64,000 nucleotides of DNA from Candidatus Multivoradales bacterium (GCA_965248925.1 CBDFLE010000005.1:2240001-2304000), one strand, 5' to 3'. Counted from the stretch's first letter, positions 3,913-58,448 are shown. Numbers and translations are program-made. The notes: generated from the sequence alone by a model not told the origin.

Positions 3913-3914
3913 CG

Positions 3915-20042: not shown

Positions 20043-20048
20043 CTTGGG

Positions 20049-29194: not shown

Positions 29195-30282
29195 GGCCGG
29201 CCGCTGACCTCCTCGCCAATCTCGATCTGGCTATCGATGTCCTGCCACGAACGCGGCTCGGCCATGCCGACGGCAATCTTCCGCGGCCCCGCGAAGGGCT
29301 GCCGGCCGTGCGCCACCAACATGTTGTCGAGCAGCAGAATGTCTCCCTTCTGCCAAGGAAAGGCGACGGTCTCGGCGTGGTATGCCTGGCGCAGCTCCTC
29401 GAGAGTCTCGGCGGCGATCGGCCCACCGTCTCCGAAGTAGCTGTTGCTCGGCAGGTCGGCCTCCGAGAACTCCTCCAACAAAGCGTCGCGGGCGATCGTT
29501 TCAAGGGTCGAGACGTTGAAGATCGTGGCGTGATTGAACCAAGTCAGCTCGTCGGTGACCGGATGCCGGGCGATCGCCGAGCGAACTGCTTCAGTGCGCA
29601 AACGCCCTTCCGCTTTCCACTCGACCGCGATCCCATGACCGGCGCAGTAGTCCTCGACCACAGTTCGGTCTTCGGTCTGGAAAACGGTCTGCCACGGCAG
29701 CCCGAAGCCATCTCCGAAATTGCGGCGATACATCCATTGGCGTTCTGAGAAACGTTTTTTAGTGGCCTCGGACAGCCGCTGATAAACCCGTCGGCAGTCG
29801 GCGATCGGCGTCTCACCACCGGTTGCCGGTGGGATCACACAGAAAAAGAAAATTCTCAGCGGAAAGCTACTCTGATAGGAGTTTTCGTTGTGCAAGAAGA
29901 TCGTCTGATCGGCCGGAAAGTCGGTCGAAGAGTAGATCTTGCCAGTGATCTGGGAACGCGGCGAGGAGCGCTCCTTGTACTCCAAAGCGCTACCGGACAC
30001 CGCTTCGATAAAATTTTCGAACTGCTCCTCGGTGTCGACATCAAAACCACGGAAAAGGATACCTCCGTGATGACAGAGCTTCTCCTGCAGCAGCGGGCGT
30101 TGGCGGCGCGCCCACTCGATCAACGCCACGCTGCCCGGCTCCGCCGGCTCGATCAGCAATGGCAGGAGTCCTTCTGCGAACAATGGCCGCATGGTCACCA
30201 GCTCGCCCGAGGTCACGCTCATGACCCGGCGGCGGGAGCCGCTGATTCCCGCCTGTAGGTGTTTGGGCAATGGTTTCTTCAT
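29191..30282 (-). CDS. TauD/TfdA-family Fe(II)/2-oxoglutarate dioxygenase, SyrP-like NRPS beta-hydroxylase
   Basis: GGILFRGF, RSSPRS...IYSSTDFP...IFLHNENSY (HxE), GGETPIAD, WFNHA, WQKGDILLLDNMLVAHGRQPF. GAGGAAG RBS; stop overlaps the NRPS3 start (ATGA). Confidence 0.93.
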   Translation of the reverse strand: MKKPLPKHLQAGISGSRRRVMSVTSGELVTMRPLFAEGLLPLLIEPAEPGSVALIEWARRQRPLLQEKLCHHGGILFRGFDVDTEEQFENFIEAVSGSALEYKERSSPRSQITGKIYSSTDFPADQTIFLHNENSYQSSFPLRIFFFCVIPPATGGETPIADCRRVYQRLSEATKKRFSERQWMYRRNFGDGFGLPWQTVFQTEDRTVVEDYCAGHGIAVEWKAEGRLRTEAVRSAIARHPVTDELTWFNHATIFNVSTLETIARDALLEEFSEADLPSNSYFGDGGPIAAETLEELRQAYHAETVAFPWQKGDILLLDNMLVAHGRQPFAGPRKIAVGMAEPRSWQDIDSQIEIGEEVSGRP

Positions 30283-33300: not shown

Positions 33301-36300
33301 ACAGGGCGGCGATCATCTCCAGCGACCGCTCGACGCACAATCCCACCCGAGTCCCCGGTCCGACACCGCGCCGTTGGAGTTCGCCAAGCAGCACCCTCGC
33401 TCGCTCCTGGAGCTCGCCGTAGGTCAGCCGCTGACCCGCGCAGCTCACCGCGACCGCCGCCGGAGTGCGCTCCGCCTGCGCCGCCAGCAAGTCGGGTAAG
33501 GAAACGAACTGGGCCGCCGCGCGAGCCCGGTCGTTCCACTCCACGACCACCTGATGGCGCTCCGCCGAACTCAGCAGCAAATCACCATGGGAGCTCTCGG
33601 GAGCCCGCGAAAGCCGCGTCAAAATGCGTCCGTAGAGCCCGCCCATGGCCCGCATTTGCAGCGCTGAGAAGCGTGCCGGGTCGTAGTCGAGCTCGCAGCC
33701 AACCCTGCCATCGAGCAGGCCGACACCGCCCAGCACCTGCAGATCGAGGTCGGTCGGTTCGATGCGCTCGAAACCCAGGACCTCCATCCGGCCCGAGGAC
33801 ATCAGCTGATCGACGGCATGAAAATGTAGGTAGTTGAAGGCCGCCGTGAACATCGGTCCGTCTCCCCAGCGGCGCTGGACCTCGCCGAAGGGAAAGCGCC
33901 GATGCTCGAGCAGCCGCCGCTCACCGGCGAACACCTGGCGCAGCAGATCGAGCCAGCTGCCGTCGGCCAACCGCAAGCGTAGCGGCAGAGTGTTCAAGAA
34001 CAGTCCGCGAAGCAGATCCGCCCCTGCGATCTCCGGTCGGCCGTGCAGCACCACGCCGGTCAGCAAGTCGGTCTGCCCCGACAACACTTGCAGCGCCTTC
34101 ATATGGGCCGTCAGCAGCACCGTCTTGAGCGGCGTGCCAGCGAGACCGGCGGTACGCCGCAAGCCCTCGGAAACCGCCTCGGAAATGGCGATCGACTGGA
34201 TCGAAACGGTCGCCGGCCGAGCACCGGATGGGTTGGGCCAACGGGGCAGCTCGAGCGCCTGCCAGCCGGCCAACATCTCCCCCCAGAAGCTCTCCGCCGC
34301 GGCCGAGCCGATGGCCAGCTGCTCGAGGTGGATGAAATCGCGATAGGTCACCGAGAGCGGCTTGGGTACTACCGGCGACGCGCCATCGAGCAGCTCGAAG
34401 TAGAGCTCGAAGATCTCCGCCAGGGTCGAGTGCAGACTCCAACCGTCGAAGATGGCGTGGTTCTCGGTCAGCGTCAGCTGGAAGGTCTCGGTAGTGCGCA
34501 GGTGGATGTGGAAGCGCAGCTGAGGCGCCTCGGTGAGGTCGAAGTGGCGGTGCTTCTCGACCTCCATCAAGACCATGATCCGGGCCTCCTGCTCGGCCGC
34601 CGGCAAGCCCCGCAGGTCGACCACCGCAACCTCTAGCTGGGCCTCACGATGTACTAGTTGCAGCGCTTCGCTGTAGCCGGTGAGATGGAACGAGGTCCGC
34701 ATCATCGGCTGCCGCGCCACCACCTGTGCCACTGCCCGCTGGAAGACCTCGGCCTCGAACCGAGCCCGCAAATGCCAGCTATCGACATTGTGGTACAGCG
34801 GATCTTCCGGCGTCAGCTGCATGTGGTAGAGCATGCCCGCCTGCAGCACACTCAGCGGATAGGCATCCTCCACCGTCGCTGGCAAGAGCGCACGATCGGC
34901 CGCCGAGATCAGGCTCAGCGGCGCCGTCCGCACGGTCGGCTCGGCCGCCGCCAAGGTGTCCGAGGACTCGGCCAGCGCCGTCGCCAGCGCGCTGATCGTC
35001 TGATGCTGGAAGAGGTCCGGCAAGGACAGCGAGATCCCTTGCTCGGCGGCTCGCGCCAGCACCCGCAAGCTCAAGATCGAGTCGCCGCCGAGAGCGAAGA
35101 AATTATCTTCCACGCTCACCCGTTCGACTCCCAGAACCTCTTGCCAAACCGCCACTAGAAGGTGCTCCGTCGGACGCTCAGGCGCGACGTAGGAGACGCT
35201 GCTCGGCAACCGTTCGCCGGCCTCCGGTGCCGGCAAGGCCCGCCGGTCGAGCTTGCCGTTGGCGGTCAGCGGCAGGGCCGCCAACTCGACGAACACCGCC
35301 GGCAGCATGTAGGCCGGCAGCCGCGCTTCGAGGTGGGCGCGCAGCTGCTCGGGCCCCAGCTCCCCCGCCACCGTGGCCGCGGCCGGCACCACGTAGGCCA
35401 CCAGGCGCGCTCCCTCCGCGTCGCCGTCGCGCCGCGCCACCACCGCCACCTCGGCCACCGCCCGATGCTCGCCCAGCACCGCTTCGATTTCCCCCAGCTC
35501 GATGCGAAAACCCCGCACCTTGACCTGCTGATCGAGCCGGCCGAGATACTCCACGCCACCATCCGCCAACCAGCGGCCGAGGTCCCCCGAGCGGTACAGC
35601 CGGTCGCCGGAACCGCCGCCGTAGGCATCCGGCACGAAACGCGCCGCGGTCAGGCCGGCACGCCCCAGGTAGCCCCGCGCCACGCCAGCGCCGCCAACCA
35701 CCAGCTCGCCGCCGACCCCGCGCGGCACCGGCTGACCCAGTACGTCCAACACGAACAGCCGCAGATCCGCCAGCGGCCTGCCGATGGCGCTGCCGAAGCC
35801 CGAGCGCACCTCTGCTTCCAGCAGCCGGTGGTAGGTCACATGCACCGTCGTCTCGGTGATGCCGTACATGTTCACCAAGGCCGGCGCAGCGTCACCGTGC
35901 CGATCCACCCAGGCCGACAGGGTCGAGGGATCGAGCGCCTCGCCACCGAACACCACCCAGCGCAAGGCCAGCTCGGTGGGCCGCGCCGACTCCGTCTGGA
36001 TCAGCTGGCGGAAGGCCGACGGGGTCTGATTGAGCACCGTCACCCCCTCGGCCGCCAGCAGCTCCAGGAAGCGCTCCGGCGAGCGGCTGACCCAATACGG
36101 CACCACCACCAACCGGCCACCATAGAGCAGGGCACCCCAGATCTCCCACACCGAAAAATCGAAGGCGTAGGAGTGGAAGAGGGTCCACACATCCGCCGCG
36201 CTGAAGTTGAACTCCGCCTCCGTCGAGCGCAGCAGCCGCAACACCTGGCCGTGGCTCACCACCACCCCCTTCGGCCGACCGGTCGAGCCCGAGGTGTAGA

Positions 36301-38263
36301 TCACGTAGGCCGCTTGCGCGGGATCGCCAGCCACCCACGGGGGCAATGGCTCGGCCAGCTCCGCTGGCGGCTCACCGGCCTCGATCTCCACCACCGTCCC
36401 TGCTGCCGCCGGCAGCTGGTCGCGCAGCGCGGCGCAAGTCACCCAAGCCGTCGCACCGCTGTCGGCGGCGATGAAGCGCAGCCGCTCGGCCGGCACCTCG
36501 GGATCCACCGGCACATAGGCCGCGGCGCAGCGCAGGGTCGCCAGGATCGCCACCACCAGCGTCGGATCGCGGGGCAGCAGCAGAGCTACGAAATCTCCCG
36601 GCCGAACCCCGAACGACCCCAGCCGGCCGGCCAACGACTCGGCGGCCGCGTGCAGCTCGGAGTAGGTCTGGGAGTGCCCTTCGCAGCTCAGCGCCAGCGC
36701 CTCGGGTCGGCTCGCGGACGCCGCCACGAAGGCCTCCCACAAGCCGCCGGTGAACTCGAAGTTCGCCCCGGCGCCGCTCCATTCCACCACCAGCTCCTGG
36801 TGCTCAGCGGCGCTCAGCAGGGCCAGCGAGGCGAGTTCGGCGTCCGGCGCTTCGACCACCGCGTGCAGCAGACGCTCGTAGTAGGCGAGGAAACGTTGCG
36901 CCGTGGCGGCGTCGAATAGGTCCGTGGCGTACTCGAGGCGCAACAACGAGTGGTCCTCACCTCGGGCCAGCGAGAAGACCAGGTCGAACTTCGCGGTCTC
37001 GGTCTGAACATCCCACCGTTCGACCCGCAGATCTGGTAGCTCAAAGCTCTCGACCCCGGCGTCTTCGAAGGCGAAGAGCACGTTGAACAGCGGTGTGCGG
37101 TCGACCCGGCGCTCGATCCCGAGGTGCTCGATCAACTGCTCGAACTGAATGTCCTGGTTCTCGAAGGCCTCCAGGGAACGCTCTCTGACTGCGGCAGCGA
37201 GCGACTGAAAGCTAGCTCCAGGGCCAAGCTCGGTGCGCAGCACAATAGTGTTGGCGAAGAAGCCGATCAACGACTCGAGCTGCGGTCGGGTACGGCCGGA
37301 GATCGGACAGCCGACCAGGATGTCCCGCTCGCCGCTCAACCGCGCCAACAAGCCCTTCAGCACCGCCAGGTGAAACATGAAACCGGTCAGGCCGAGGCGC
37401 CCCGCGAGCTGTTGACCGGCGGCGGTCAAGGCACCGCTCAGCCGGCGACCACACACCGCGCCACGCTGCGAGCGGCGGGCGGGTCGCGGCCGATCGAGCG
37501 GCAGCGGCAGGAGCTCCAAGGCACCCGCCAGCCGCCGCCGCCAGTACTCCTGCTGGTCGACCAGCGCACCCTCGCTCAACATCCGCCGTTGCCAGGCGGC
37601 GTAGTCGCCATACTGAATCGGCAGCTTCGGCAACCGTGGCGTCCGTTCTTCGATCCGCGCCGCGTAGGCCTCCGACAGCTCGCGCATCAGCAGATCGATC
37701 GACGAGGCCTCACCGATCAAGTGATGCATGGTCAGCAGCAGGACATGGGCTGCTGAATCGGTCTTTAGCAGCATGAAACGTAGCAGCGGGCCGCGGCTCA
37801 AGTCGAAAGGACGCCGCAGCTGCTCGGCAATCCGCTCGGTCGTCAGCCACTCGCGCGCCGCTACGCTGAGACCGCGCAGGTCGACCAGGGGTAGCTCGAT
37901 TTCGACCGTTTCTTCGACCCGCTGCCAAGGCAGTCCAGCGACCACTTCGACCCGCGAGCGCAGCACCTCATGGCGCGAGACCAGCAGGACAACGGCGGCG
38001 CGAAGAGCATCGACCCGCAGGCCCCCAGACCAGCGAAAGGCCTGGCTCAGGGTGTAGGCCAACGAGCCATCCTGCCACTGGTCGAGAAACCACACCCGCT
38101 GCTGAGCGAAGGATAGGGGCAGCTCGGCGCGCGACTCCAGTGGCTCGATCTTGGCGGCAGCTCCGGGCACCTCGCCGTCGTCGTCGTCGAGCAGCAAGTC
38201 GAGCAGCTCGAGCTGGTCGTCGAGCCGTTGCTCGTCCGCCGGATTCATCGCCCCGTCGGTCAT
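30308..38263 (-). CDS. NRPS2 (2651 aa): C-A5(Thr)-T-CmodAA(dehydrating type)-A6(Gly)-T-C
   Basis: Codes DFWNVGMVHK (Thr) and DILQLGLVWK (Gly). T5 has GGDS. The second C has EDAYPLS..QAGM, RTSFHLTGYSEALQLVH and NHAIFDGWS. The first C has HHLIGEA; the terminal C has HHIIADA. ATGA overlap with NRPS1. Confidence 0.95.
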   Translation of the reverse strand: MTDGAMNPADEQRLDDQLELLDLLLDDDDGEVPGAAAKIEPLESRAELPLSFAQQRVWFLDQWQDGSLAYTLSQAFRWSGGLRVDALRAAVVLLVSRHEVLRSRVEVVAGLPWQRVEETVEIELPLVDLRGLSVAAREWLTTERIAEQLRRPFDLSRGPLLRFMLLKTDSAAHVLLLTMHHLIGEASSIDLLMRELSEAYAARIEERTPRLPKLPIQYGDYAAWQRRMLSEGALVDQQEYWRRRLAGALELLPLPLDRPRPARRSQRGAVCGRRLSGALTAAGQQLAGRLGLTGFMFHLAVLKGLLARLSGERDILVGCPISGRTRPQLESLIGFFANTIVLRTELGPGASFQSLAAAVRERSLEAFENQDIQFEQLIEHLGIERRVDRTPLFNVLFAFEDAGVESFELPDLRVERWDVQTETAKFDLVFSLARGEDHSLLRLEYATDLFDAATAQRFLAYYERLLHAVVEAPDAELASLALLSAAEHQELVVEWSGAGANFEFTGGLWEAFVAASASRPEALALSCEGHSQTYSELHAAAESLAGRLGSFGVRPGDFVALLLPRDPTLVVAILATLRCAAAYVPVDPEVPAERLRFIAADSGATAWVTCAALRDQLPAAAGTVVEIEAGEPPAELAEPLPPWVAGDPAQAAYVIYTSGSTGRPKGVVVSHGQVLRLLRSTEAEFNFSAADVWTLFHSYAFDFSVWEIWGALLYGGRLVVVPYWVSRSPERFLELLAAEGVTVLNQTPSAFRQLIQTESARPTELALRWVVFGGEALDPSTLSAWVDRHGDAAPALVNMYGITETTVHVTYHRLLEAEVRSGFGSAIGRPLADLRLFVLDVLGQPVPRGVGGELVVGGAGVARGYLGRAGLTAARFVPDAYGGGSGDRLYRSGDLGRWLADGGVEYLGRLDQQVKVRGFRIELGEIEAVLGEHRAVAEVAVVARRDGDAEGARLVAYVVPAAATVAGELGPEQLRAHLEARLPAYMLPAVFVELAALPLTANGKLDRRALPAPEAGERLPSSVSYVAPERPTEHLLVAVWQEVLGVERVSVEDNFFALGGDSILSLRVLARAAEQGISLSLPDLFQHQTISALATALAESSDTLAAAEPTVRTAPLSLISAADRALLPATVEDAYPLSVLQAGMLYHMQLTPEDPLYHNVDSWHLRARFEAEVFQRAVAQVVARQPMMRTSFHLTGYSEALQLVHREAQLEVAVVDLRGLPAAEQEARIMVLMEVEKHRHFDLTEAPQLRFHIHLRTTETFQLTLTENHAIFDGWSLHSTLAEIFELYFELLDGASPVVPKPLSVTYRDFIHLEQLAIGSAAAESFWGEMLAGWQALELPRWPNPSGARPATVSIQSIAISEAVSEGLRRTAGLAGTPLKTVLLTAHMKALQVLSGQTDLLTGVVLHGRPEIAGADLLRGLFLNTLPLRLRLADGSWLDLLRQVFAGERRLLEHRRFPFGEVQRRWGDGPMFTAAFNYLHFHAVDQLMSSGRMEVLGFERIEPTDLDLQVLGGVGLLDGRVGCELDYDPARFSALQMRAMGGLYGRILTRLSRAPESSHGDLLLSSAERHQVVVEWNDRARAAAQFVSLPDLLAAQAERTPAAVAVSCAGQRLTYGELQERARVLLGELQRRGVGPGTRVGLCVERSLEMIAALWAILDSGAAYVPLDPGFPAHRLAQIVEDSGVCLLVTERASAERLPASGIARWVIDEAPLKAAVGCRPVPPKLAQSLAYVVYTSGSTGRPKGVQVPHQAVSNFLASMAQRPGLGAGDTLLAVTTLSFDIAVLELFLPLIVGGRLELARGQDVAAGERLQTLLRQREVSALQATPATWRLLLESGWEGTPGLLALCGGEVLPPDLARRLRPRVKALWNLYGPTETTVWSSIERVEEVSGSLPIGRAIDNTTLRLLNSDLAPVPIGVAAELYIGGDGVSRGYFAAPALSAERFVPDPLAGCPGARLYRTGDLARWRTDGKLDFLGRGDRQVKLRGYRVELGDIEACLGQHPGVSEAVVVVRGEGVAARLVAWVATGDGIQADQLRRFVSERLPRYMVPAACLQLQSLPRLPNGKLDHRALREKAPVAAPRAAAESVPRGTAEELLASIWSETLELPGVRREDDFFALGGHSLLATRLLARVQSAFGVRLQLHHLFSAPILRAQAELIGRLDPAAVGSPVAQPIERRQRDQQHPLSYAQQRLWFMAQLEPANPGYNMFSAFRFEGELAAAVLTAAFETVVRRHEVLRTRFESRQGEPQAVIIEPWRLRTPVVDLTRLPAQQHDPVAHRLLGDFAHRPFALASGPLVRVLLLRVAADQHLALFCIHHIIADAWSFTVLVREVVQLYEAQQRGRLAELPALPIQYVDYAGWQRDWLDQQWVENELIFWRRQLSGVPALLQLPADHQRRGGRFAGGTRYQRLEAGWAERLDSFSRAAGVTPYMSLLTAFLSLLHAETGAEDLVVGTDIGSRERLETENLIGCLVNSLVLRVDLSGEPSFVQLLERVRGVCLNAFAHQALPFDRLVEEIQPERRSGATPLVQVAFNLQNAPLQDLDLPGLKMSSVHVERRAARFDLVANLRQLEGGFFGTWEYRRDLFEPARVDRWINDHQEILRLGVAQPELPIGEIWQQVLAGRRQRQQGVGKKLKQANLAKFRNTRRRAVSP

Positions 38264-41200
38264 ACCTTGCCTCGCCGCCGTTGGGCCAACTTGTCGGCCA
38301 ACTCGTCGGGTGACATCTGTTGAATCCGCAGCAGCAGCTCGGCCCGCTTCGCCAGCATGCCGGGGCGCCTCTCGTGATCCTCCAGCGCGCTGGCCAGCTG
38401 GGCGATGGTGGTGGCCTCGAACAGCTGTCGCAGGGGCAAATCGATCTTGAACGCTGAGCGCAGCTGGAAGATCAGCCGAGCGGCCAACAGGGAGTGTCCA
38501 CCAAGCTCGAAGAAATCGTCGTGGATGTCCAAATCGTCACGACCCAACAGCTCGCTCCAGATGCCTACCAGAGCTTCTTCCAACGCCGAGCGCGGTGCCA
38601 CCCGCAGGCGCTCGCCGGTGGTCTCAGCCAGCCGTGGCGCCGGCAATGCAGCACGGTCCAGCTTGCCGTTGGGAGTCCGTGGTAGCTGTTCGAGGTCGAC
38701 GAAGAGAGTCGGCACCATATGCTCCGGAAGCTCGCTCCGCAGATGGTTGCGCAAGTGCCCTGCATCCGCTAGCTGAGCTTCCGCGGCGGCCACCCAATAG
38801 GCGACCAGCTGGAGATCCGCGGTTGCCGATTCATGGGTCACCACCACCGCCTCTGCAACTCCGGGATGGCGATCGAGATGGCTTTCAATCTCACCCAGCT
38901 CGATCCGGTGTCCGCGCACCTTGACCTGCTGATCGACCCGCCCAAGGAACTCCAGCACCCCATCGCGGCGGCGGCGGGCCAGGTCGCCGGTGGCATACAT
39001 TCGCCGCCCTGCCCGCGAGGAGAAGGGATTGGGCACAAAGCAGTCGGCGGTCAGTGCCGGCCTTGCCAGATAACCCCGCACCACCCCCTGGCCGGCGATG
39101 AACAGCAGGCCAGGTATCCCCACCGGCTGCAGCTCGAGGCCGCCGCCGACGACGTGCAGCTCGGTGTTGGCGATCGGCCGGCCGATCGGCACGCTGCCGC
39201 CGCCGCGCTCCAGCCGCCAGGTCGAGGACCAGATGGTGGTCTCGGTCGGCCCGTACATGTTGTGAATCTCACCACCGCCGGCCAAGCTCTCAGCGAGCGA
39301 CGGCGGCAGAGCCTCGCCGCCGAGCAGCAGACAGTCGACCTCGGCCAGCTCCTGACGGACCTCGGGATCCAGGGCCAGCATGGTCGCCATCGACGGGGTG
39401 CATTGGAAGTGGGTGACCCGGTGGCGGCGGATCTGCTCGCCGATGCCGATCTCCGGTTGGCCGCCGAGCAGGGTCGCCCGACGCACTTCGCTCTGCACCT
39501 CGGCGAGTCTTGACAGACCGGCGAGAACCTGGTCCTCCGCAATACCGAAATCGATCAAGCAAGCCACTTCATCGACGCCGATCTGACTCAGCCGGGCGAC
39601 CATGTCGAAACAGCTCTGGCGAGTGCCCATCAAGCCGCTGGTGGCGAAGTAGCGCTCGAAGGAGAATTCCAACATGGCCTCCATGTCGGCTGCGGAAAGC
39701 TCGGTGTCCTGAAGATCCCAACCCAGGCTGACGGCGAGGTTCTTGACCAGCCCGGCCGAGCCGCGGAGATAGCTGTAGAAGGGCTGCCGCACGGTTTCCT
39801 TCGCCACCTCGAGGTCGTCGGCGACGAAGGCGTGCAACATCACCGAGACCTTGCCCGACTGTGGCTCGTGCCCGGCCTCTTGCCGCGCCTGGCGATAGAT
39901 CTGGATGTTGGCCGCCAGCTGGTCGATGTCTTGACCGAGCATGTGGGTCAGCAGATGGGCGCCGAGCTCGCCGCCACGGCGAAAAGTCTCGGGACTACCG
40001 GCGGCGGTCACCCAGATCGGCAGCTCGGGCTGCACTGGCGGCGGCAAGATGGAGATCTCGGCCTCGGCGCCAACTCCGTCCGTCATGGTGACTTTCTCAC
40101 CGCGCCACAGCCGGCGAATCGTCTCCAGGTTGCGGAACATCACGGCGTGACGATCTTGAAAGCTGTCCGGCGCCAGCACGAAGTCGTTGGCCACCCAGCC
40201 GGAGGCGATCGAGATGCCGACCCGGCCGCCGGAGATGTTGTCCACCACCGACCATTCCTCGGCCACTCGGACCGGGTTGTGCAATGGCAGCACCACGCTG
40301 CCAGCGCGGATCTGCACCCGTTCGGTGATGGCGGCGATCGCCGCACCGACCACCGAGGGGTTCGGATACAGACCACCAAAGTGGTGGAAATGACGCTCCG
40401 GGGTCCACACCGCGGCGAAGCCGAGACGATCGGCGATGCGCGCCCCCTCGAGCAACAGGCGGTAACGATCATGCTCCTGCTCCCCCAGGTCGCTGGCGAA
40501 GTAGAACAAGCTGAAGTCGATCTCGCGGCCGATCGTCCGCTCTGTGGATCCAGACCAAGCGGCGCGACTGGGCGCCGCCGGCTGCAACACCACCCGGTAG
40601 CCGCGGGTGAGGGGCCACAACAGCTCGAGCACCGAGATGTCGAACGAGATGCTGGTCACCGCCAACCAAGTTCCAGGCTGGTCGCGACCGACCTGCCGGT
40701 CCATGCCGACGAAGAAGTTGGCGACGCTGGCGTGATCGACCATCACCCCTTTGGGCCGACCGGTCGAGCCCGAGGTGTATATCACGTAGGCCAGTCGCTG
40801 CAGCGATTCATCCAGCGACGGCGGGTCCGAGCGCTGGCCGTCGATCAGCCACTGATCTCGTTCCGGGTCCACCACCACCCGGCGCGGATCCTCTAGGTCA
40901 CCGAGCTCACCGGCATCGGCGATCAGCAGGGTCACCGCTGCATCGTCGAGCAGATAGGCCAAGCGGCGGGGCGGGTAGGAGGGATCCAACGGCAAGTAAG
41001 CAGCACCGGCCTTCAGCACCGCCAGCATGGCCACCACCATCTGCGGCGTGCGTCGCAAGTGGATTCCGACCAGGCTCTCCGGCCCAGCGCCCAGTGAGAT
41101 CAAGTAGTGGGCCAGGCGATTGGCGCGCGCCTCGAGCTCGCCGTAAGTGATCTGTTGGTCGGCGAAGGTTAACGCCACCCGCCAGCGCTGGCGAGCAACC

Positions 41201-44200
41201 CGTGACTCGAACTGGCGGCTCAGCGGCAGCTTGCCAGGCCTCTCGACCGCGGCCATCTCGGCTACCGGCAGCTCGCTGGCGGTGTCGTTCCACTCACCGA
41301 GCAGCTGCCGGCGCTCCGCCGCGCTGAGCAGCGGCAGCTGCGCCAGATCAGCGCCGAGGGCGGCGCCCGACAACCCAGCCAGCAGGGTCTCCAGGTGCCC
41401 CCAGAGACGCGCGATCGTAGTGTTGTCGAAAAGCTCGTCACTGTACTCGAGGAAGCCCTGAAGCCGATCTCCGTCAGGGGCCAGAAAGAGGCTCAGGTCG
41501 TAGCGCGAAACCCGGGTCTCGACATCCTCCAAGCGCACTTCGAGGCGGTCAAATTCGACCCCTTCGGCGGGCACGTTCTGCAGCGCGAGCATCACTTGGA
41601 AGAGGGGTGAGAAGCTCAAAGAGCGTTCCGGCTCAAGTTCCTCAACCAGCTTCTCGAACGGCAGGTCCTGGTGGGCCGAGGTCGCCAGGGTGACCTCGCG
41701 AACCTGCCCGATGAGGCCCAGGAAAGTCTGCTCAGCGAGACCCTGCAAACGAAAAACCAGGGTGTTGACGAAGCAACCGACCAGCGGCTCGGTTTCTAGC
41801 CGGGTGCGCCCGGCCACCGGCACACCGATCGACAGGTCGGCACTGCCGGAGTAGCGCGCCAGCAGAGTGCTCCAAGCCGCAAGCAGCACCATGAACAGGG
41901 TCCCTCGGTGCTGCCGCCCGAGGCTCTCCAGAGCGGCGGTGCGCGAGGCGTCGAGTTGGACTGGTAGGCTGGCGCCAGAATTGCTCTGCACTGCCGGCCG
42001 CGGCCGGTCTGTGGGTAGATTCAGCAGGGCTGGCGCGCCAGCCAACCGCGAGCGCCAAAACTCCAACTCATCGGTCAATGCCTGGCCTTGCAACCAGTCT
42101 TGCTGCCAGGCCGCGTAGTCGACGTATTGCACCGGCAGCTCGGCGAGCTGTGCTGAGCAGCCACGGCGGCGGGCTCCGTAGTGGGTGGCAAGCTCCCGCA
42201 GCAGCAAGCCGGTCGACCAGCCGTCGCCGACGATGTGATGCACATTGAGCAGCAGTGAGTAGTCCCGCTCGGCAAGCCGCAACAGCGCCGTTCGCAGCAG
42301 TGGGCCACGGCGCAGATCGAAACCGCGGGCCGCGTCGGCGGCCGCCAGGCGCGCCGCTTCGGACTCCGCCGAGGCGGCCCGCAGACCCACCAAGTCGATC
42401 ACTGGCAGGGCCACGGGCACCGGCCCATGCAGCCGCAGCCGCGGCGCCCCATCGGCCGGCTCGAAGGTCGAACGCAGCACTTCCTGGCGGGCAACAAGGT
42501 CTGAGAAAGCCTCCCTCAACGCGCCAATGTCGAGCACGCCGCCCATTCGCAGCCGTAACGGCAGGTTGTAGAGCGGGCTCTCAGGATCGAGCTGATCGAT
42601 GAACCAAAGCCGCCGTTGGGCAAAGGAAGCCGGCAACTCAGCCGACCTGGGCAGCCGTTCGATCGGTGCTGGCAGCGAGTCTCCGCCGCGGCCTCGGGCT
42701 ACCTCGACATAGGCGCTCAACGCACCGAGGGTCGGCAGCTCGAACAGCTTCAGCAACGGAATCTCGACCGCCAGTGTGGTTTGCAGCCGGGAGATCGCTC
42801 GGGTGGCGTGTAGCGAGTGGCCACCGAGCGTGAAGAAATCGTCTTCGACATGAATCCGATCGAGCCCGAGGACCTCCATCCAGATCGCGGCGACCATCTC
42901 TTCGGTCAGATTGCGCGGCAAGGTTCGCAGCCCGTCGGTGGTGTTCACTGCCACTTCGCGACTGGCCAGCGCCCGGCGATCCACCTTGCCACTGGTCAGC
43001 CGGGGCAGTTCGCCCAGCACCACGAAAGTGCTGGGCACTAAGCTGGGCGGTAGCTCGTGGGCAAGGTCCTGGCGTAGCTGGCGAGTGTCCAAAGCGGCCT
43101 GCGAACGGCCGACGACATAGGCCACCAGCGCCTTGTCGGCGCCAGCACCGCGAGCGACCACCGCGGCCCCCTCGATGGCGGGATGCTCAGCCAGCCGGGC
43201 CTCGATCTCCCCCGGCTCGATGCGTACCCCCCGCACCTTGACCTGCTGATCGGCGCGGCCCAAGTACTCCAGCCGACCGTCGGCCAGCCGGCGCGTCCGG
43301 TCACCGGTACGGTAGAGCCGGCCACCGGCACGCGGCGACCACGGGTCGGGAACGAAGTGCTCGGCGGTTAAGGCAGCGCGACCCTGGTAGCCCCGCGCCA
43401 AGCTCGGACCGGCGACGTAGAGTTCGCCAGCAGCCGCCGCCGGCAACGGCTCCAAACCGGCGTCCAACACCGACAAGCGCAGATTGCCCAAAGGCCGGCC
43501 GATCGGTACGATCTGCCCCGCCCCGGCCTGGCCCCGGCGACAGCGGTGGTGGCTGGCGTCGATCGCCGTCTCGGTGGGGCCGTAAAGGTTGATCAGCTCG
43601 GCGTCCAGCAGCGACTCGAAGCGCCCGCGCAGCGCCTCCGGCAGCGCTTCTCCACCGCTGAAGACCCACCGCAGACTGCCGCACGAAGCCGCCCCGACCT
43701 CCTCTAGCCAGACTTGCAACTGCGACGGAACCAGCTGCAGCACACTTACCCCGCGCGCCTCGATCAGCTGCCGTAGATAGGCCATGTCGCGATGACCACC
43801 GTCTCGCGCCAGCTCGACCGAGGCCCCCGCCAACAGCGGTGTCAGCAGCTCCCACATCGAGGCGTCAAACGACAACGGGGTCTTCTGCAGAACCCGGTCC
43901 TCAGCTTCCAGCGGATACTCCGACTGCATCCACAGCACCCGGTTGGCGATCGCCCGATGCGAAACCATCACCCCCTTCGGCCGGCCGGTCGAACCCGAGG
44001 TATAGATCAGGTAGGCCAGTTGCTCGGCCGTCACCGACACCGCGGTTGCCGCCCGCTGGCGACGCCCGGCAACCGCCTGGGAAAGCTCTATGACCGGCAG
44101 GTCACCGCTCAGTCCAGCGGTCTGTGGCCGCGTCGTCCAGGCCGAGTCGACCAGCAGCAGCGAGGTACCGCTGTCCTCGATCAGGTAGCTCAGCCGCGCC

Positions 44201-47200
44201 GCCGGATAGTCTGGATCCAGCGGCACGACGGTGCCACCGCCACTCAAGATGGCCAGCAGACCGGCCACCATCTCCGGCGAGCGGACGCTCGACAGGCCCA
44301 CCCGGGTCTCCGCCACCATGCCTCGCGAGCGCAGCGAGCCCGACAGCTGATCGACCCGCGACCAGAGCTCGGCGTAACTCCACGACACGGCGCCCTGCGC
44401 CACCGCCTGCAGACCGCCGCAATCAGCGCGCCGAGCGAGCAGCGGGCCGAGCAGCGAGTCGGCGCCGTAAGACACCGCCGTATCGTTCCAATCCCACAGC
44501 AGCTGATGCCGCTCGGCGCGACTCAGAATCCCCCATTGCGACGGCGCGACGACCTCTCCCGCCACCAGGTTCCGCAGCAAGGTCGTAAGGTGATCGAGCA
44601 GCCGGCCGATGGTGGTCGGGTCGAATCTTGCCGGGTCGTAGGCCGCCGTGAAGGCCAGCTCGGAGGTCCGGGCGGCACTGAGCACCAGCGGATAGTTGGT
44701 GCGCTCGAAGAACAGTAAGCGGCCCACACGGGGCGCCGCCTGGCGCTGCTCCATGAGCCCCACCAAGGGGTAGTTCTCGAACACCAACAAGCTCTCGAAC
44801 AACGGCTGATCCGCCGCCAAACCGCAGAGCTGTTGAATCTCGGCCAGGGGTGTGTGCTGGTGAGATCTCGCCTCGCTCTGGCCGGCCTGAACCCGCCTCA
44901 ACCAGCCGATCAAGGTCGCCGACGACGGTACTTCGAGACGCGCCGGAAGAGTGTTGATGAACACCCCGACCATCCGTTCTGAGTCCTCCACGGAAGCTTG
45001 GCGGCCGGCCGCCACGGTGCCGAAGACAACTTCTTGATGGCCGCTGTAGAGCGACAGCAGACGCGCCCAGGCGCTCTCGAACAGCGTGTTGAGGGTCAAG
45101 CGGTGCCGGCGGACCAAGTCGTCCAAGGCTGCCGCCAGTCGAGCCGGCAGCACCAGCCGCTGCTCGGCCACCCGCGAGCTGGCCTCTGTCAGCGACGCTG
45201 GACGGTCGATGCCGAGGGGAGTCGGTGCATCGAAACCGCTCAATCGCCGACGCCAGTATGCCAATGACGGTGCCGCTTGCCGACCCTGCAACCAACGCAG
45301 ATGGCCGCTTGGCGAGGGCGCCGCCGACAGCCCGGCGGGGCGCCCTTCGATCAAGGCGTCATAGAGCTCGAACAGCTCTCGAATCACCAGCGCCACCGAC
45401 CATCCATCGAGCAGCAGATGGTGAAAGCTCCAGATCAGCCGCTGCCGGCCTGCGCCGAGCTCGATCATCGCCAGGCGCCAGGCCGGACGGCGGGAGAGGT
45501 CGAAACCACGCTGGCGCTCGGCGACCATCAGCGCCGCGACCCGCGAATCCTGCTCCACCGCCGGCAGGGCACTCCAGTCGAGGACCTCGGCGCTGGCCTG
45601 GTGCTCAGGCAGCACCGCCACCAGCGGTCGCTCGAGTCCCTGCCACAGCAGCAGCGCTCGCAACATCGGATGGCGACTGGCGATCTGCCCCCAGGCCTCG
45701 AGCAAGACCTTGGAGTCGAGCTCGCCGAGCAGCTCACAGCTCATCTGCTCGGTGTAGAGATCGGAAGCCGGCGCCGCCAAGGCGTGAAACAGCATGCCCT
45801 CTTGGGTCGGGGTCAGCGGCAGCAGGTCTTCGATCTCTCCAACCGTCGTCCGCAGCTCATCCAGAGCTGGCTGATCGAGGTCGGCGAGGGGGAAGTCCGA
45901 GGGGGTGAAGCCGCGGTTGGCCGGCTTCGAGCAATGGTCGATCCAGGCGCCCAGCCGGCCGATGAAATCGTTCGCCAGGCTGCCGATCGTCTGCCGTCGG
46001 TGGGCACCTCGAGAGAACTCCCAATCCACCAGCAAGCGACCCTCGCGCACCTTGACGCTGATCTCCAACAGATGGCTGCGCTGCTGCCGGCGACTACGCT
46101 CGGCCGGCTGCTCCTCGGCAATCAACTTCAGCATATCGGTTGAGCCAATCACGCCATCGAGTTGACCGAGATAGTTGAACAGCACTTCGGCGCTACCCTT
46201 GTCTACCACATCCTCGCCGTCGCTGAGATAGCGCAGCATGCCCCAGCCCCGACCTTGATCCGGCACCGCTCGCAGCTGCTCCTTCACCTGCTTCAGATGA
46301 GCGCCGCCGGCGCTGACCTCGCCAAGCTCCAGGCGTAGCGGGAAGAGGCTGGTGAACCAGCCCACGGTACGCGCCACATCTAGCTTGGCCAGACCGTCGA
46401 ATTGGCGGCCATGACCCTCCAGATCGATCTTCACCGCGCGGTCGCCGGACCAGGCGGTGAGGGTCTCCGCCAAAGCGGTGAGCAGGATCTCCTGAACGTC
46501 CGTTCGATAGGCCCGTGGTGCCTGCTCAAGCAGCGTTTGAGTGCTCTCGACCGGCAATTGGACGCGCACCACCTCGGCCTCGCCAACCGTTCCTCGGCCG
46601 CCGTCGATATCCACCGGCAGCGGCCGGCTCGGCCGGCTAGCGTGGCGCCAATAGTCGACCTCGGCGACCCTCGCTTCTGCACCGGCGGTCGCCATCAGGT
46701 GCTCCACCCAGGTCTGATAAGAGGTGGTCGGCGGCAGCGGTGAGGGCTGGCTTCCGGCCTCGAGCTGACCGTAGGTCCTTTCCAGGTCCAGCACCAGCAA
46801 ACGCCAGGAAACGCCATCCACCACCAGGTGGTGGGCGATCCACAGCAGCCTCCCTGGCTGCTCGCCGTGGTCCAGCAGCAACCAACGCACCACCGGTCCA
46901 ATGCTCAAATTGAGGCTGGCTTGAGCTCGGCGAACCAGGCGATCGCGAGCCACAGACCGGTGGCCCTGGCGCAAATGGCTCAAGTCGATCCGGGTCCAGG
47001 GCAGCGTCGAATCGGGCGCCGAGCAATGCTGGCGCCAGCGCCCGCCGCGATCCTCAAACCGCAACCGCAAGGCATCGTGCCGACGCAGCATCAACCGCGC
47101 CGCTACCGCCAGGCGAGCGGGGTCGAGAGCTGTTGGCGTGGCCAGCAAGAGAGCCTGATTGAAATGCCAAGGCTCGGCCGGTTGCTGCTCGAAGAACCAC

Positions 47201-50200
47201 TGCTGAATCGGACTCAGCGGGACCTCGCCACGCATCGGCGCGGCTGCTGCCATCTCACCCTCTGTCAGCTCACTTTCGAAGCTGCCCAGGCGAGCGAGCT
47301 CGGCGATGGTCGGCGCCTGAAAAACGTCCTGAGCACCGAGCCGCAACCCCTCGGCGGCCGCCTGAGCGACCACCTGAAGAGAGAGGATCGAGTCGCCACC
47401 GAGGGCGAAGAAATCATCGTGGATGCCGACTCGCTCAACCCCTAGAGCGGCGGCCCACAAGCGGCTCAAGCACTTCTCGGCCGCGGTTCCGGCCGCGACG
47501 TAGGCCGACTCAAACTCGCTGCCGCGGGAGTCCGGCGCGGGCAGAGCCTGGCGATCGAGCTTGCCGCTGGCATTGAGCGGTAGCTGTCCAAGGAAGGTGA
47601 AAGTCGCCGGGATCATGTGGCCGGGAAGGCACTGGCCCAGATGCTCCCGCAACTCGGCGATACCCTCGCGAAGGCCTACCACATAAGCATCGAGCCGGCT
47701 CTCGCCCGCTTTTGTGGCGCCGACCGCGGCCGCGGCGGCGGCCACCCTTGGGTAGTTTTCCAAAGCAGCTTCGATCTCACCCAGCTCGATGCGAAATCCT
47801 CGCAACTTGACCTGATGGTCGAGTCGGCCGAGATACTCGATCGAGCCATCGGCCCGATAGCGCGCCAGATCACCGCTGCGGTAGAGCCGCTGCGCTGGCG
47901 GTTGCTGAGCTAGAGGGTCGGGGACAAAAGTCCTAGCGGTCAGTGCTGGCCGCTGCCGATAGCCACGGGCCAGCGCGACGCCACCAATGCACAGCTCGCC
48001 GGCAACCCCGACCGGCACAGGCCTCGCCCGCCGGTCGAGCAAGCGGATTCGCACGTTGTCGATCGGCCGCCCGATCGGCACCATGCCCTGGTGATCAGCA
48101 GCACCACAGCGCCGAGCGGTGACATCCACCGCCGCTTCGGTGGGACCATAGAGATTGTGCAGCGGAGCCTTGAGGCGGCGGTCTGCCCGGCGCACCAGGT
48201 CCGCGGTCAGCGCCTCCCCGCTGCAGATCACCTGGCGCAGGATGCCCTGGGTCTTCTCGACCCCCGCAGCGAGCAGGAAAACGCGCAGCAGCGAAGGAAC
48301 GAAATGGATCGTGGTGATCCGCTGCTCGATCAAGGCCGACACCAGGTAGGCAGAATCACGGTGACCACCAGGGCGCGCCATCACCACCGTCGCACCGCAG
48401 AGCAGTGGCCAGAAGAGCTCCCAAACCGAGACATCGAAACTGGTCGGAGTCTTCTGCAAGATCCGATCGCCGGGTATCAGGGCGAAGCGCGATTGGGTCC
48501 ACAACAGCCGGTTGACTACTCCCCGATGTTGATTCATCACCCCCTTCGGCCTGCCGGTCGAACCCGAGGTGTAGATCACATAGGCCAGGTTCTCGGGCAG
48601 TGCCCGCCGGTACTGACCACCGGGCTCGGCAGTAGCTGATCTGACGACCGGTTGATCGAGATCCTCGTCCAGCCGCAGCACCGGCACCGCGGCAGAGGGT
48701 AGGGCGCCGGCCAAGTCACTCTGCGCGACGACCAGCGATGCGCCGCTGTCTTCGATCATGAACAGCAAGCGCTCGGCGGGATAGTCCGGATCGAGGGGCA
48801 GATAAGCGGCGCCAGCCCGCAGAATCCCGACCAGGCCGATCAGCAGCTCGAGGGAACGCTCGGCGAGCACGCCGACCACCGACTCGGGACCGACGCCGCG
48901 CTCGCCCAAGTGGTCGGCCAGCCAACCGGCCCGCCGCCAGAGCTCGGCGAAGCTCAGGACGCCAGAATCAGCGACGACGGCGATGATGTCGGGGCCGCGC
49001 GCGGTGTTTCGCTGGATGAGCTCGGTCAACGTCTGATCTGCCGAGGCGTAGGCCACCGCGCTGTCCGCCCACTCGACCAGCAGCTGCTGGCGCTGCGCCC
49101 GGTCGAGGATGGGCAGAGAAGCAACCGGCTGTCGGGGCGCATCCAGGATGCCGACTAGCAGACTCTGCAACTGCTCGAGCCAGCGCAACACCGTCGTCGA
49201 ATCGTAGAGTGCCGTGCTGTACTCGGCCCACAGCAAGTCCCCCCCGGGTTGCCGCCGCAAACCAACGCTGAGGTCGAACTTGCTCTGCGGAGTCACCAGC
49301 TCCTCAACCGCGACCTCGGTCTCACCAAGCCGCAACAAGGCTGGTGGCTCTTCCAACAACAGCATGATTTGAAAGAGGGGGTTGCGACTTCGGTCGCGAC
49401 TCAGATCGAGGCTCTGAACGAGCAGCTCGAAAGGCACATCCTGGTGCGCGTCAGCTTCTAGCACCGATCGCCGGCTGAGCCGCAAGAGATCGAGAAAGCT
49501 CTCACTACCTTCTACCTCAAGGCGCATCACCTGGGTATTGACAAAGACCCCCAGAAGCCTCTCGCTCTCCAGCCGGTTGCGATTGGCGACGGCGGTACCA
49601 AGGCGCTGATCCTGTTCGCCGGTAAGGCGGAAGAGGAGCACCTGAAAAGCTGCCAGCACCGTCATGAACAGCGACCCACCATGGGCCTGGCCAAAATGTT
49701 CAAGAGCCCGGAGATCGATCTTCGTCAAGTGCCTCTCGACCCGGCCGCCAGCGAAGTCAAAAGTCGCCGGTCGAGGCCGATCACCGGCGAGCTCGACACC
49801 GCTGCCACTGCCGGCAAGCTGCTGGCGCCAGTAGCGGATCTGGGATTCGTAGACCCCATCCTCGAACCAGCGCCGCTGCCAGCCGGCGAAATCCTGATAG
49901 TTGATCGCCGGCCGCCCCAGGCTGGGCCGATGGCCGGCGGCGAGGTCACCGTAGGTCGCCGCTAGTTCGCTCAGCAGCAGGTCGATGGACCAGCCGTCGG
50001 CAATGATGTGGTGCAGGCAGACCGCCAACCCCACACCCTCCGCCCCGAGATCTAGCCACAGCGTCCGCAGCAGCGGCCCACGGCGCAAGTCAAACCGCCG
50101 GCTGGCGAAGCTCCGAGCCAGCGCCGCGAGTTCCACTTGCCGATCGGCGGCGCCGAGATGGTCGAGATCGACCCGTGGAGTGCAGTGAGCGGTCAGCCCC

Positions 50201-55770: not shown

Positions 55771-56074
55771 GGCATGGTCGAACCGTTTCAGCTAGTGGTA
55801 GGTAGCCGGACCAGGCGCCGGGGGCTCTCCGCGAGGCCAGCGGAGAAATCTCGACGAATATGCCAACTACCCCTCTATAACGCAAAGAACTCTGGCAAAA
55901 AGAACAACTCAACTTAGACTAGTCTGCACACTCTAACGTCAATCAGCAGCGTACCGCCGCAATCAGAAACACCTCTGCAAGAGCGTGATTTCTTTCCATG
56001 ACCATGGACGCCCTTCGAGGTTTGGCGAGCTGCGAACGGTACGGGATAATGGCCGCCGTGAAGGAATCAAAACT
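55771..56074. promoter_or_regulatory. Divergent promoter region between the NRPS operon and the peptidase/carbamoyltransferase operon
   Basis: Non-coding, visibly AT-richer gap between head-to-head genes. It contains the palindrome AGACTAGTCT (55916-55925) and a stem-loop TCTCCGC-N7-GCGGAGA (55826-55846). Promoter boxes were not assigned. Confidence 0.55.
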
Positions 56075-58432: not shown

Positions 58433-58448
58433 AACCGAGAGGAATGCA

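Follow-up and report, generated by a model that had tools for sequence, protein, structure and literature searches.

The window, that is, the whole 64,000-nucleotide stretch of Candidatus Multivoradales DNA that was analysed, carries on its minus strand a series of non-ribosomal peptide synthetase (NRPS) genes. The protein encoded by N1 has the domain order FAAL-T, C-A-T, C-A-T-E, C-A-T and C-A(MOx)-T, where MOx is a monooxygenase, and ends with a 40-residue tail. These assignments were made with Pfam and with a domain map drawn up by means of HMMs made from the window's own domains.

38260..55770, minus strand: N1, NRPS of 5836 aa (ORF list, Pfam, domain map)
54499..55635, minus strand: FAAL-type loading domain, N1 residues 46-424 (domain map)
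53719-53847, minus strand: loading T domain of N1, residues 642-684 (domain map)
45919..47226, minus strand: E domain of module 2, N1 residues 2849-3284
41299..42639, minus strand: C domain of module 4, N1 residues 4378-4824, LCL-type with motif HHIVGDG
40531..41178, minus strand: N-terminal part of the Gly A domain (A1-A4, ending after SFDISVLE), residues 4865-5080
39568..40494, minus strand: embedded FMN-dependent luciferase-like MOx, N1 residues 5093-5401
38662..39453, minus strand: C-terminal part of the Gly A domain (A5-A10), A residues 5440-5567 and A-C-subdomain 5627-5703
38383..38574, minus strand: T domain of module 4, residues 5733-5796, with phosphopantetheine site GGHSL

The glycine module and its embedded monooxygenase

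In the loading region of N1, Pfam detects AMP-dom_DIP2-like at residues 470-580, and no AMP-binding_C was found after the FAAL-type domain. The E domain of module 2 displays the motifs HHLVVDG and EGHGR, and the C-domain tree places it with the other E domains. The codes of modules 1 to 3 are DVGDTGIVNK, DVWHISLVDK (followed by the E domain) and DAWQFGLIDK, of which we take the second and third to be those of Ser and Gln. With these assumed meanings, the FAAL-T start followed by three codes, with E after the second, agrees with the predicted acyl-X-D-Ser-Gln leader of the initial annotation.

A Gly module with a built-in oxygenase is confirmed as the fourth of 27 modules in a lipopeptide line. 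Every element initially listed for it was found in place on the minus strand by Pfam and the domain map, A(MOx)-T extending over 38383-41178 rather than 38380-41230. In the C-terminal half of N1, Bac_luciferase (PF00296, E 8.5e-52) lies between pieces of AMP-binding and is followed by AMP-binding_C and PP-binding. The MOx belongs to TIGR04020 (MupA/Atu3671 FMN-dependent LLM, NCBIfam), with a score of 519.2 bits against a cut-off of 244.45. The A-domain HMM is broken by the MOx at model positions 208/214, while AMP-binding_C is unbroken. Since the A4 motif SFDISVLE precedes the insert and FQCTPS, LLLGGEAL and NMYGPTETTIW come after it, the MOx is inserted between A4 and A5, as had been noticed at the outset. 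At the Stachelhaus positions, the A domain reads DILQLGMIWK, which we take to be a Gly code in line with the initial annotation, the position rules being likewise assumed. Of the exact codes read from A domains with a MOx in 150 relatives, this one is the most frequent (12 fully parsed cases), and 7 more match it without the final K.

Of 73 columns with at least 95% conservation among 129 homologues, the MOx retains 71, the two departures being A5266G and L5277M. With these columns kept and a TIGR04020 score above the cut-off, the domain looks functional as judged from its sequence. That it is mostly skipped or inactive, leaving plain glycine at position 4, is very unlikely. Column 5266, Gly here and Ala in 129/129 homologues, would accord with such a loss, as would the fact that no flavin reductase was identified among the neighbours as annotated and the origin of solanimycin A, which is described as arising by skipping of the corresponding step. 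Against it speak the conserved columns, the full-length match to TIGR04020 and to PuwE, and the insert itself, as 309 residues kept in frame within an A domain are unlikely to be a relic.

Continuation of the line beyond module 4

The genes that follow N1 in the window are the following:

38263..38382, minus strand: basic 40-aa C-terminal tail of N1, presumed docking element
30308..38263, minus strand: N2, 2651 aa, C-A-T-C-A-T-C (ORF list, Pfam, domain map)
38126..38263, minus strand: N-terminal head of N2, 46 aa, strongly acidic, presumed partner of the N1 tail
36788..38125, minus strand: N2-C1, LCL-type C domain facing the T of the MOx module
29191..30282, minus strand: TauD-family dioxygenase between N2 and N3 (Pfam E 1.6e-49)
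23411-29194, minus strand: N3, continuing modules of the same line
20049-23429, minus strand: N4, continuing modules of the same line
3915-20042, minus strand: N5, continuing modules of the same line
1-3918, minus strand: start of N6, continuing modules of the same line

The ATG of N2 overlaps the TGA of N1 (ATGA). The charges of the N1 tail and N2 head suggest that they may form a docking pair; at N6|N7, the other T|C gene junction, the polarity is reversed. In the C-domain tree, N2-C1 is sister to N7-C1 among the LCL domains of the line and groups apart from starter C, DCL and E domains. As modules 1-27 have one catalytic C domain per A domain, the only donor available to N2-C1 is the T domain of module 4. 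The active-site motif of N2-C1 is HHLIGEA (37706-37726) in place of HHxxxDG. A Glu at the Asp position occurs in only 3 of 376 C-like domains, and this variant could reflect an unusual donor. The module after the Gly-MOx module is of Thr type and is followed by an unusual C domain with NHAIFDG.

N3, N4, N5 and the start of N6 (1..29194) form modules 7 to 13. In total, 23 A domains lie downstream of module 4, on six genes that are ATGA-coupled or closely spaced; the initial count of at least nine further modules was true but too low. An HMM scan of 155 kb around N1 revealed one MOx and one TE, the latter closing N7, the final NRPS gene, beyond the window's edge. N1 itself stops 40 residues past its last T, so that no TE follows the Gly-MOx module, in keeping with the early observation. 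The ATGA coupling, the LCL-type C domain in N2 and a lone TE 23 modules further on bear out the view of an internal module in a running line.

Related modules in other genomes and in described pathways

The initial annotation regarded the A(Gly)-MOx architecture as a terminal one, an internal occurrence being odd. This does not hold in other genomes, where A(MOx)-T is followed by KS or C in 53 of 71 informative loci and by an MtaG-like T-TE in 6; mid-line A(MOx) modules turn out to be common. Among 150 representative proteins, the T is followed in the same protein by a C-like domain in 37 MOx modules and by a TE in 9. In 85 of the 152 MOx domains of relatives, the T of the module is the protein's end, and the locus survey shows that the next ORF then mostly brings a KS (37) or a C domain (6).

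Such endings, and the fact that the MOx module closes its own protein here too, would accord with N1 being a separate MtaG-like line that makes a lipotripeptide amide only, N2-N7 making an unrelated peptide. This is extremely unlikely. N1 is without TE, there is no second TE in 155 kb to clear glyoxylate, and the elongation-type C domain at the start of N2 would be donorless. The ATGA overlap and the KS or C domains encoded after most T-ending MOx proteins also speak for continuation.

The domain right after the MOx module is an E domain in 15 of 34 cases, 12 of these 15 modules having DILQ-type codes. An epimerase would be senseless without a stereocentre in the residue. In 31 of the 150 relatives, the best-scoring ones included, the A domain with the MOx also holds an FkbM methyltransferase, and a relative from the same order carries two MOx+FkbM modules in a single line. 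The T-TE modules of the survey have the same code type as module 4. Terminal (TE) and internal contexts are mixed in the MOx tree, so the MOx domain itself gives no hint of the outcome. This mixing and the rare HHLIGEA of N2-C1 count against retention of an oxygenated residue. The C domains after MOx modules form no separate clade in the C-domain tree.

MtaG and MelG of myxothiazol and melithiazol are described as terminal C-A-MOx-A-T-TE modules, with the insert between a4 and a5, in which the glycine Cα is hydroxylated and the hydroxyglycine then cleaved. They resemble module 4 by a Gly-type A domain broken by a MOx at the same site. Unlike these line-ending modules, in which a TE clears glyoxylate, module 4 has no TE directly after its T and is not the last of its line, an LCL C domain and 23 modules coming after. 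The likeness is to the descriptions, as neither protein is named among the 120 homologues listed. The shared insertion site in systems described as cleaving counts against retention.

SolF from Dickeya solani, as described for solanimycin, likewise has a flavin monooxygenase embedded in an internal Gly module, with further NRPS extension, but the insert lies between a8 and a9 instead of A4 and A5. Solanimycin B is described as keeping an internal alpha-hydroxyglycine followed by dehydro-amino acids; a comparable position in the present line is taken by the Thr-type module and then the C domain with NHAIFDG. Solanimycin A, lacking the step, illustrates that hydroxylation may be skipped, which also counts against retention. 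The closest solved structure to the MOx is PuwE (PDB 6KET, E 2.3e-118 over the whole domain), the monooxygenase domain of which was assigned, in work on puwainaphycin, a 2-hydroxyl that remains in the product. The likeness lies in hydroxylation beside the thioester of a carrier-bound chain and in retention of the hydroxyl. The PuwE domain differs in standing between a PKS part, an aminotransferase and an NRPS module, outside any A domain, and in acting on a beta-amino fatty acyl chain rather than glycine.

For zwittermicin A, it has been proposed that ZmaL/ZmaB cut the chain from a carrier-bound residue, which is extended further, and that the ZmaM peptidase strips the N-terminal part. The introduction of a preprint states that zwittermicin and sarpeptins are formed similarly to the amidative release of myxothiazol. 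Several products from one line, as proposed there, would be the point of likeness; a separate cleaving protein and an alanine left on the carrier differ from the embedded oxygenase and glycine found here.

Possible fates of the module 4 glycine

The initial annotation had suggested a self-cleaving line with two products. This is unlikely and finds no support in the present results, as the comparative evidence from E domains, FkbM, the double-MOx relative, PuwE and solanimycin favours retention. For module 4, which has no FkbM, fragmentation on the line or after release is nevertheless conceivable. Of the two alternatives offered then, the labile hydroxyglycine linker comes nearer to the evidence than release and restart.

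In a release on the line, C-N cleavage on the T would let acyl-X-D-Ser-Gln-NH2 leave, and glyoxylyl-S-T would feed N2-C1 to give a glyoxylyl-capped 23-mer. This course is decidedly improbable. It draws on the insertion site and code type shared with the MtaG/MelG kind and on the zwittermicin proposal of a residue left on the carrier and extended further. The rare HHLIGEA variant of N2-C1 would fit. Several Burkholderiales MAGs have a loading-type A(MOx)-T without C followed by KS, which would give a glyoxylyl starter, so that glyoxylyl-accepting downstream domains are conceivable. However, N2-C1 groups with peptidyl-accepting LCL domains, apart from starter C domains for small acyl groups; the C domains downstream of MOx modules have no clade of their own; and the E domains that follow the module in relatives would be pointless on glyoxylyl-S-T. 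In peptide amidation, acyl-flanked carbinolamides hold up fairly well at neutral pH, and their cleavage requires a lyase.

Cleavage after completion of the chain has to be weighed together with the genes around the line:

55985..58432, plus strand: membrane-bound M28 metallopeptidase, 815 aa, divergent from N1 (Pfam, hydropathy)

This protein, which besides its M28 domain has a signal anchor, a C-terminal domain and about 7-8 hydrophobic stretches, may be part of the cluster; a paralogue with 36% identity is encoded at the opposite end, and MacB and ABC exporters are also encoded at the cluster. Such flanking membrane peptidases and exporters would fit removal of a leader, which counts against retention. 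The full-length hemiaminal would then break up once released or exported, either by itself at the carbinolamide or aided by an enzyme, into a lipotripeptide amide and an N-glyoxylyl 23-mer, the lipid leader being pro-drug-like. We consider this unlikely. A lipid start, 0-3 residues and Gly(MOx) do recur: 13 of the 150 representative proteins start with FAAL-like, (T), C, A(MOx), one has the MOx module third, and the MOx is at modules 1 and 3 in relatives G039 and G053 and at module 3 in L037. In 2 of 80 loci (L005 and L013), M28 homologues adjoin genes for FAAL-T-C-A(MOx). But M28 homologues occur in 38 of 61 related genomes and, among 20 loci fetched, only 6 had NRPS domains near the homologue and none a MOx domain, so the link to MOx is weak. 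M28 enzymes are known as exopeptidases that need a free terminus, and neither predicted fragment would have one at the cut. The neighbours scanned include no lyase-like gene, and relatives epimerise or methylate the residue. Cleavage of hydroxyglycine is the outcome described for MtaG/MelG, and several products after cleavage are proposed for the zwittermicin line.

The colibactin and xenocoumacin systems share a lipid-primed short N-terminal stretch and, given the described topology of ClbP, a membrane-anchored periplasmic peptidase with exporters beside the synthetase. They differ in that no leader code here (DVGDTGIVNK, DVWHISLVDK with E, DAWQFGLIDK) is one for Asn and that the peptidases are Pfam M28 metalloenzymes and not of ClbP type. 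In both traits the line departs from N-acyl-D-Asn pro-drug systems of the ClbP type.

We regard it as somewhat probable that module 4 builds alpha-hydroxyglycine at residue 4 and that the whole chain is handed on. Domain order, insertion site, code and intactness of the MOx were observed for module 4, as were the LCL character of the next C domain, the lone TE, the coupling of the genes and the frequency of this arrangement elsewhere; we infer the site and timing of hydroxylation, the intact hand-over and what becomes of the hemiaminal once it is released. As module 4 of a colinear 27-module synthetase, it would load Gly and condense it with acyl-X-D-Ser-Gln-S-T. The embedded FMN-dependent MOx would hydroxylate the Gly Cα while the peptide is bound to the T of module 4, and the resulting peptidyl-alpha-hydroxyglycyl thioester, an N-acyl hemiaminal, would pass intact to the LCL-type C domain of N2. 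Twenty-three more modules would extend the chain, and the sole TE, which closes the last synthetase, would free it. With intact hand-over, extension and a lone TE, the on-line product would be a single long lipopeptide carrying alpha-hydroxyglycine as its fourth residue.

Module 4 is itself without FkbM, and no E domain comes after it, so the two strongest arguments for retention are those of its relatives and not of this line. E domains, FkbM and the double-MOx relative, together with PuwE and solanimycin, point to retention of the oxygenated residue, and its methylation or epimerisation in relatives argues that it may have a lasting structural role.

The glycine module at the end of N1

The first synthetase gene of the line, N1, is an ORF of 5836 aa on the minus strand (38260–55770), with the module bearing the luciferase-like monooxygenase (MOx) at its 3' end. 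Its C-terminal half matches the Pfam families Condensation, AMP-binding and PP-binding, together with a single Bac_luciferase domain (E = 8.5e-52). Domain mapping, with profiles built up from domains of the window itself, gave the order FAAL-T, C-A-T, C-A-T-E, C-A-T, C-A(MOx)-T, where FAAL is a fatty acyl-AMP ligase loading domain. In the last module (module 4), the A profile is interrupted at model positions 208/214 by the 309-residue MOx (residues 5093–5401). As the motif SFDISVLE (A4) lies upstream of the insert, and FQCTPS, LLLGGEAL and NMYGPTETTIW lie downstream, the insertion is located between A4 and A5, in agreement with the initial annotation. The ten residues at the Stachelhaus positions read DILQLGMIWK, which we take to be a glycine code. 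The GGHSL site of the T domain is present, and 40 residues after this domain the protein ends. The module content claimed initially (a Gly code, MOx, T and no TE) was found in full; the module also has no methyltransferase, and no E domain follows T.

The insert belongs to TIGR04020, the MupA/Atu3671 family of FMN-dependent luciferase-like monooxygenases (NCBIfam, 519 bits; cut-off 244). Of 73 columns with a conservation of 95% or more among 129 homologues, it keeps 71. That the oxygenase is mostly skipped or dead is considered very improbable.

A line of 27 modules

The cluster extends beyond the left edge of the window on contig C5 of the genome, with all synthetase genes on the minus strand. 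The synthetase span covers window positions 1–55770 and continues to window coordinate −46567 (fetched loci L001 and L002).

Synthetase genes in the order of the line, with the TauD gene and the junctions at C-like domains lacking the His motif
N1: 38260–55770, minus strand, FAAL loading and modules 1–4
N2: minus strand, C-A-T-C-A-T-C in the domain map
TauD gene: minus strand, between N2 and N3
N3: minus strand, His-less C-like domain, A with methyltransferase, T, C
N4: minus strand, A-T-C
N5: minus strand, second His-less C-like domain, A with FkbM-type methyltransferase, T, three further modules, E domain
N6: minus strand, five modules
N7: minus strand, ten modules and TE, outside the window
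23411–30282: N2/TauD/N3 junction
3915–23429: N4/N5 junction
L171 1871–4148: a locus listed with these two junctions

The set comprises 27 A domains after the FAAL, in 33,743 residues, seven genes and about 102 kb of a cluster of roughly 115 kb, with exactly one catalytic C domain per module and one TE in 155 kb. Such a line would, to our knowledge, be one of the longest known from bacterial NRPSs. A search for an orthologous cluster gave none: MOx identity is at most 63% in 61 related genomes, and also in the best 80 of 546 loci from a species-genome collection, where the window's own record may be absent.

The TGA of N1 overlaps the ATG of N2, and the remaining gene junctions overlap or have gaps within 25 bases. 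The N1 tail is basic and the N2 head strongly acidic; the other junction of a T and a C domain between genes, N6/N7, has the opposite polarity. We infer that the N1 tail docks with the N2 head; a complex prediction for the N1 T domain and tail with the N2 head scored 0.34, with one control at 0.28, and speaks neither way. In a tree of 110 C-like domains, the first C domain of N2 (N2-C1) is sister to that of N7 within the LCL group, apart from the starter C, post-E (DCL) and E domains. Every test of position (line layout, junctions, C-domain tree) therefore places the MOx module internally, at position 4 of 27, and the reading of N1 as a separate line is considered extremely improbable.

The motif of N2-C1 (37706–37726) is HHLIGEA, with Glu in the Asp position. 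This rare variant is a point against the retention of the chain that is argued for below. It occurs in three of 376 C-like domains, all three adjoining a MOx module (N2-C1 and domains of loci L078 and L004). Since most C domains of that set adjoin MOx by construction, the coincidence may be due to chance and no conclusion is drawn from it. A specialised clade for C domains following MOx modules was rejected, as these scatter across the LCL and E clades and include two Cy domains.

Several other features of the line were recorded. Modules 26 and 27 (N7 residues 8640–10765, outside the window) are a tandem duplicate, matching in 973 of 1063 amino acids and 2988 of 3189 nucleotides, and N2 shares 51% identity with the first 2600 residues of N7. 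Two proteins end in a catalytic C domain (HHIIADA, HHVVSDA), the next protein opening with a His-less C-like domain followed by a methyltransferase-bearing A domain. The cluster has three TauD-family genes. The His-less domains look like interface-type domains recruiting β-hydroxylases, with O-methylation coming later; the interface concept is drawn from a published passage together with general background. Two C domains, paralogous to each other, have NHAIFDG in place of HHxxxDG (33545–34864, N2 residues 1134–1573; and N7 residues 1140–1580, outside the window); both come after a Thr-type module and stand beside the DCL group in the tree. They may be modifying (dehydrating) C domains, in which case a dehydro residue would directly follow the hydroxyglycine, as in solanimycin.

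Genes at the cluster edges
55985–58432: membrane M28 metallopeptidase, one cluster edge
L001 13053–15887: membrane M28 paralogue, far cluster edge, 36% identical to the first
58362–59381: OTCase-like gene, adjoining the CARDB-repeat ORF
60306–63998 and on to 72002: 3898-aa ORF, four CARDB repeats, weak prenyltransferase-like and DUF11 matches
L001 4965–6278: DDE transposase gene, a few kb past the far-end M28 gene

Position of A(MOx) modules among relatives

A full HMMER search of the MOx domain against 1.84 billion representatives retrieved 2037 proteins (E ≤ 1e-30), the best 150 of which are all multidomain synthetases or fragments thereof. They contain 152 MOx domains, including that of the window: 85 lie in a module with its T domain at the protein's C-terminus, 37 precede a C-like domain of the same protein and 9 a TE, 17 are in fragments, and 4 are in other contexts. 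No named characterised relative appears among the 120 homologues listed.

The species-genome collection has 546 stretches coding for a relative, and the best 80 were examined together with flanks of up to 10 kb. What follows A(MOx)-T is a KS in 37 loci and a C in 6, both in the next ORF; a C stands in the same ORF in 10 others (one of which, L065, has a T-MOx of the PuwE kind rather than an interrupted A domain), and 6 have a TE. Another 12 have no synthase domain within 1.2 kb, and in 9 the contig end is too near. Of the 71 informative loci, which come from many phyla, 53 thus have a line that continues, and 6 show an MtaG-like layout. The initial annotation, which had called for such a survey, had presumed internal A-MOx modules to be rare; they prove to be the majority. 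The domains KS-AT-KR-DH-T(-TE) or KS-AT-T-R were verified with Pfam in four of the KS-type loci.

The MOx domain is present in 18 of the 61 related genomes. Three relatives were read from end to end: in one, FAAL-T-C-A(MOx)-T lies inside a single 9294-aa open frame with KS and further C-A-T modules, one (G053) has two MOx modules in one line, and the third has a PuwE-like arrangement. Separate MOx subfamilies for terminal and internal use were rejected, as the contexts are intermixed in the MOx tree; with the codes also being the same, the MOx domain itself is uninformative on the outcome.

A distinct layout, A(MOx)-T without a detected preceding C and followed by KS-AT-KR-DH-T-TE, was seen in L029, L033, L041, L042, L049, L052, L072 and L076, mostly from Burkholderiales MAGs. 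Such a C-less module might be a loading module that turns glycine into a glyoxylyl starter.

Fate of the hydroxyglycine

Module 4 would make a peptidyl-α-hydroxyglycyl-S-T, the intact chain would pass to N2, and the product would be a lipopeptide of 27 residues, the fourth of which carries a hemiaminal. This sequence of events is held to be the likeliest, though no more than somewhat probable. Four lines of comparison point, by analogy, to a retained hydroxyglycine. The closest solved structure to the MOx domain is PuwE (E = 2.3e-118), whose monooxygenase domain is credited, in the published passage on puwainaphycin, with the 2-hydroxyl that persists in the lipid residue. The solanimycin paper describes an α-hydroxyglycine kept in solanimycin B, and names skyllamycin and spergualin as further hydroxyglycine compounds. 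The solanimycin module is an internal Gly module like module 4, but its flavin monooxygenase is inserted between a8 and a9 and not between A4 and A5.

Among 34 C-like domains that directly follow A(MOx)-T within one protein, 15 belong to the E clade (mostly bearing EGHGR), 2 are Cy and 17 LCL-like; DILQ-type codes are found in 12 of the 15 MOx modules followed by E. An E domain in this position argues for retention, because an epimerase can act on hydroxyglycine and not on glycine or glyoxylate. An FkbM-type methyltransferase lies about 290 residues after MOx in the same A domain in 31 of the 150 relatives, including most of the top-scoring ones, and another methyltransferase type is found in 4 further relatives. 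These A domains are doubly interrupted, by MOx between A4 and A5 and by FkbM within the AMP-binding_C region (for example P0005–P0008, P0011 and P0013; order verified with Pfam in P0008). In G053 (contig C6, L166–L168), two MOx+FkbM modules occur in one line, each followed by KS. The FkbM domain probably O-methylates the residue to α-methoxyglycine, which would lock the hemiaminal. Neither a doubly interrupted A(MOx+FkbM) domain or α-methoxyglycine residue, nor an internal A4–A5 MOx module of known product, was found described in the literature searched, which has few subscription journals; the supplements of papers on corallorazine and interrupted A domains might list such modules.

Against retention, module 4 itself has neither of these methyltransferase or E-domain marks, published descriptions of the MtaG and MelG modules have them cleaving the chain, and a figure legend on zwittermicin proposes a line that is cut and yet goes on. 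An on-line split followed by a glyoxylyl restart is judged quite improbable. No lyase, second TE or type II TE was found among the cluster neighbours. Of the two alternatives initially put forward, the labile hydroxyglycine linker came near the mark, nearer than the two-product split.

The hemiaminal at residue 4 could also be a programmed breaking point, which is regarded as unlikely, if credible. Fatty acyl-X-D-Ser-Gln would then be a carrier or safety leader of the 27-residue lipopeptide, and the hydroxyglycine would collapse after export, unaided or with the flanking membrane M28 enzymes, into the amide of the lipotripeptide and a 23-mer whose N-glyoxylyl cap is a reactive aldehyde. This would fit the recurrence, in other phyla, of a lipid start, 0–3 residues and Gly(MOx), and the two membrane M28 peptidases, MacB permease and ABC exporter that flank the cluster.

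The first M28 protein is grouped in the Atlas with 'vacuolar membrane protease'/ERMP1-like families. M28 homologues adjoin FAAL-T-C-A(MOx) genes in 2 of the 80 loci, both from Pyrinomonadaceae MAGs, one of which has a C-TauD fusion and then a His-less C-like domain, like this cluster. Among 20 M28 loci fetched from relatives, 6 have NRPS domains nearby, with the M28 homologues at NRPS gene starts or ends, and a further locus shows no more than a weak A-type hit. As the family is found in 38 of the 61 related genomes and MOx in none of the 20 loci, a specific M28–MOx link was rejected.

The interest lies in the wider class, of which module 4 is one further member, in an unusually long line. The chemistry described in the literature searched is limited to terminal A-MOx modules (myxothiazol, melithiazol) and the one differently built internal module of solanimycin; for internal Gly-MOx, MOx with FkbM, and MOx followed by E, there is almost none. 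Given the mid-line majority and the 2037 representatives, a large number of peptides and hybrids, most of them unstudied, should therefore carry α-hydroxyglycine, or α-methoxyglycine where FkbM shares the A domain, whereas current prediction habits would score mid-line Gly(MOx) modules as chain terminators. If leader release is true, the recurring arrangement would be a widespread leader-release device that follows the N-acyl-D-Asn pro-drug logic by oxidation and independently of a peptidase. The locus offers a clean test, having one MOx module without a methyltransferase, followed by an ordinary C domain and, 23 modules on, by the only TE, and whether its hemiaminal is kept or serves as a breaking point bears on the reading of the whole class.
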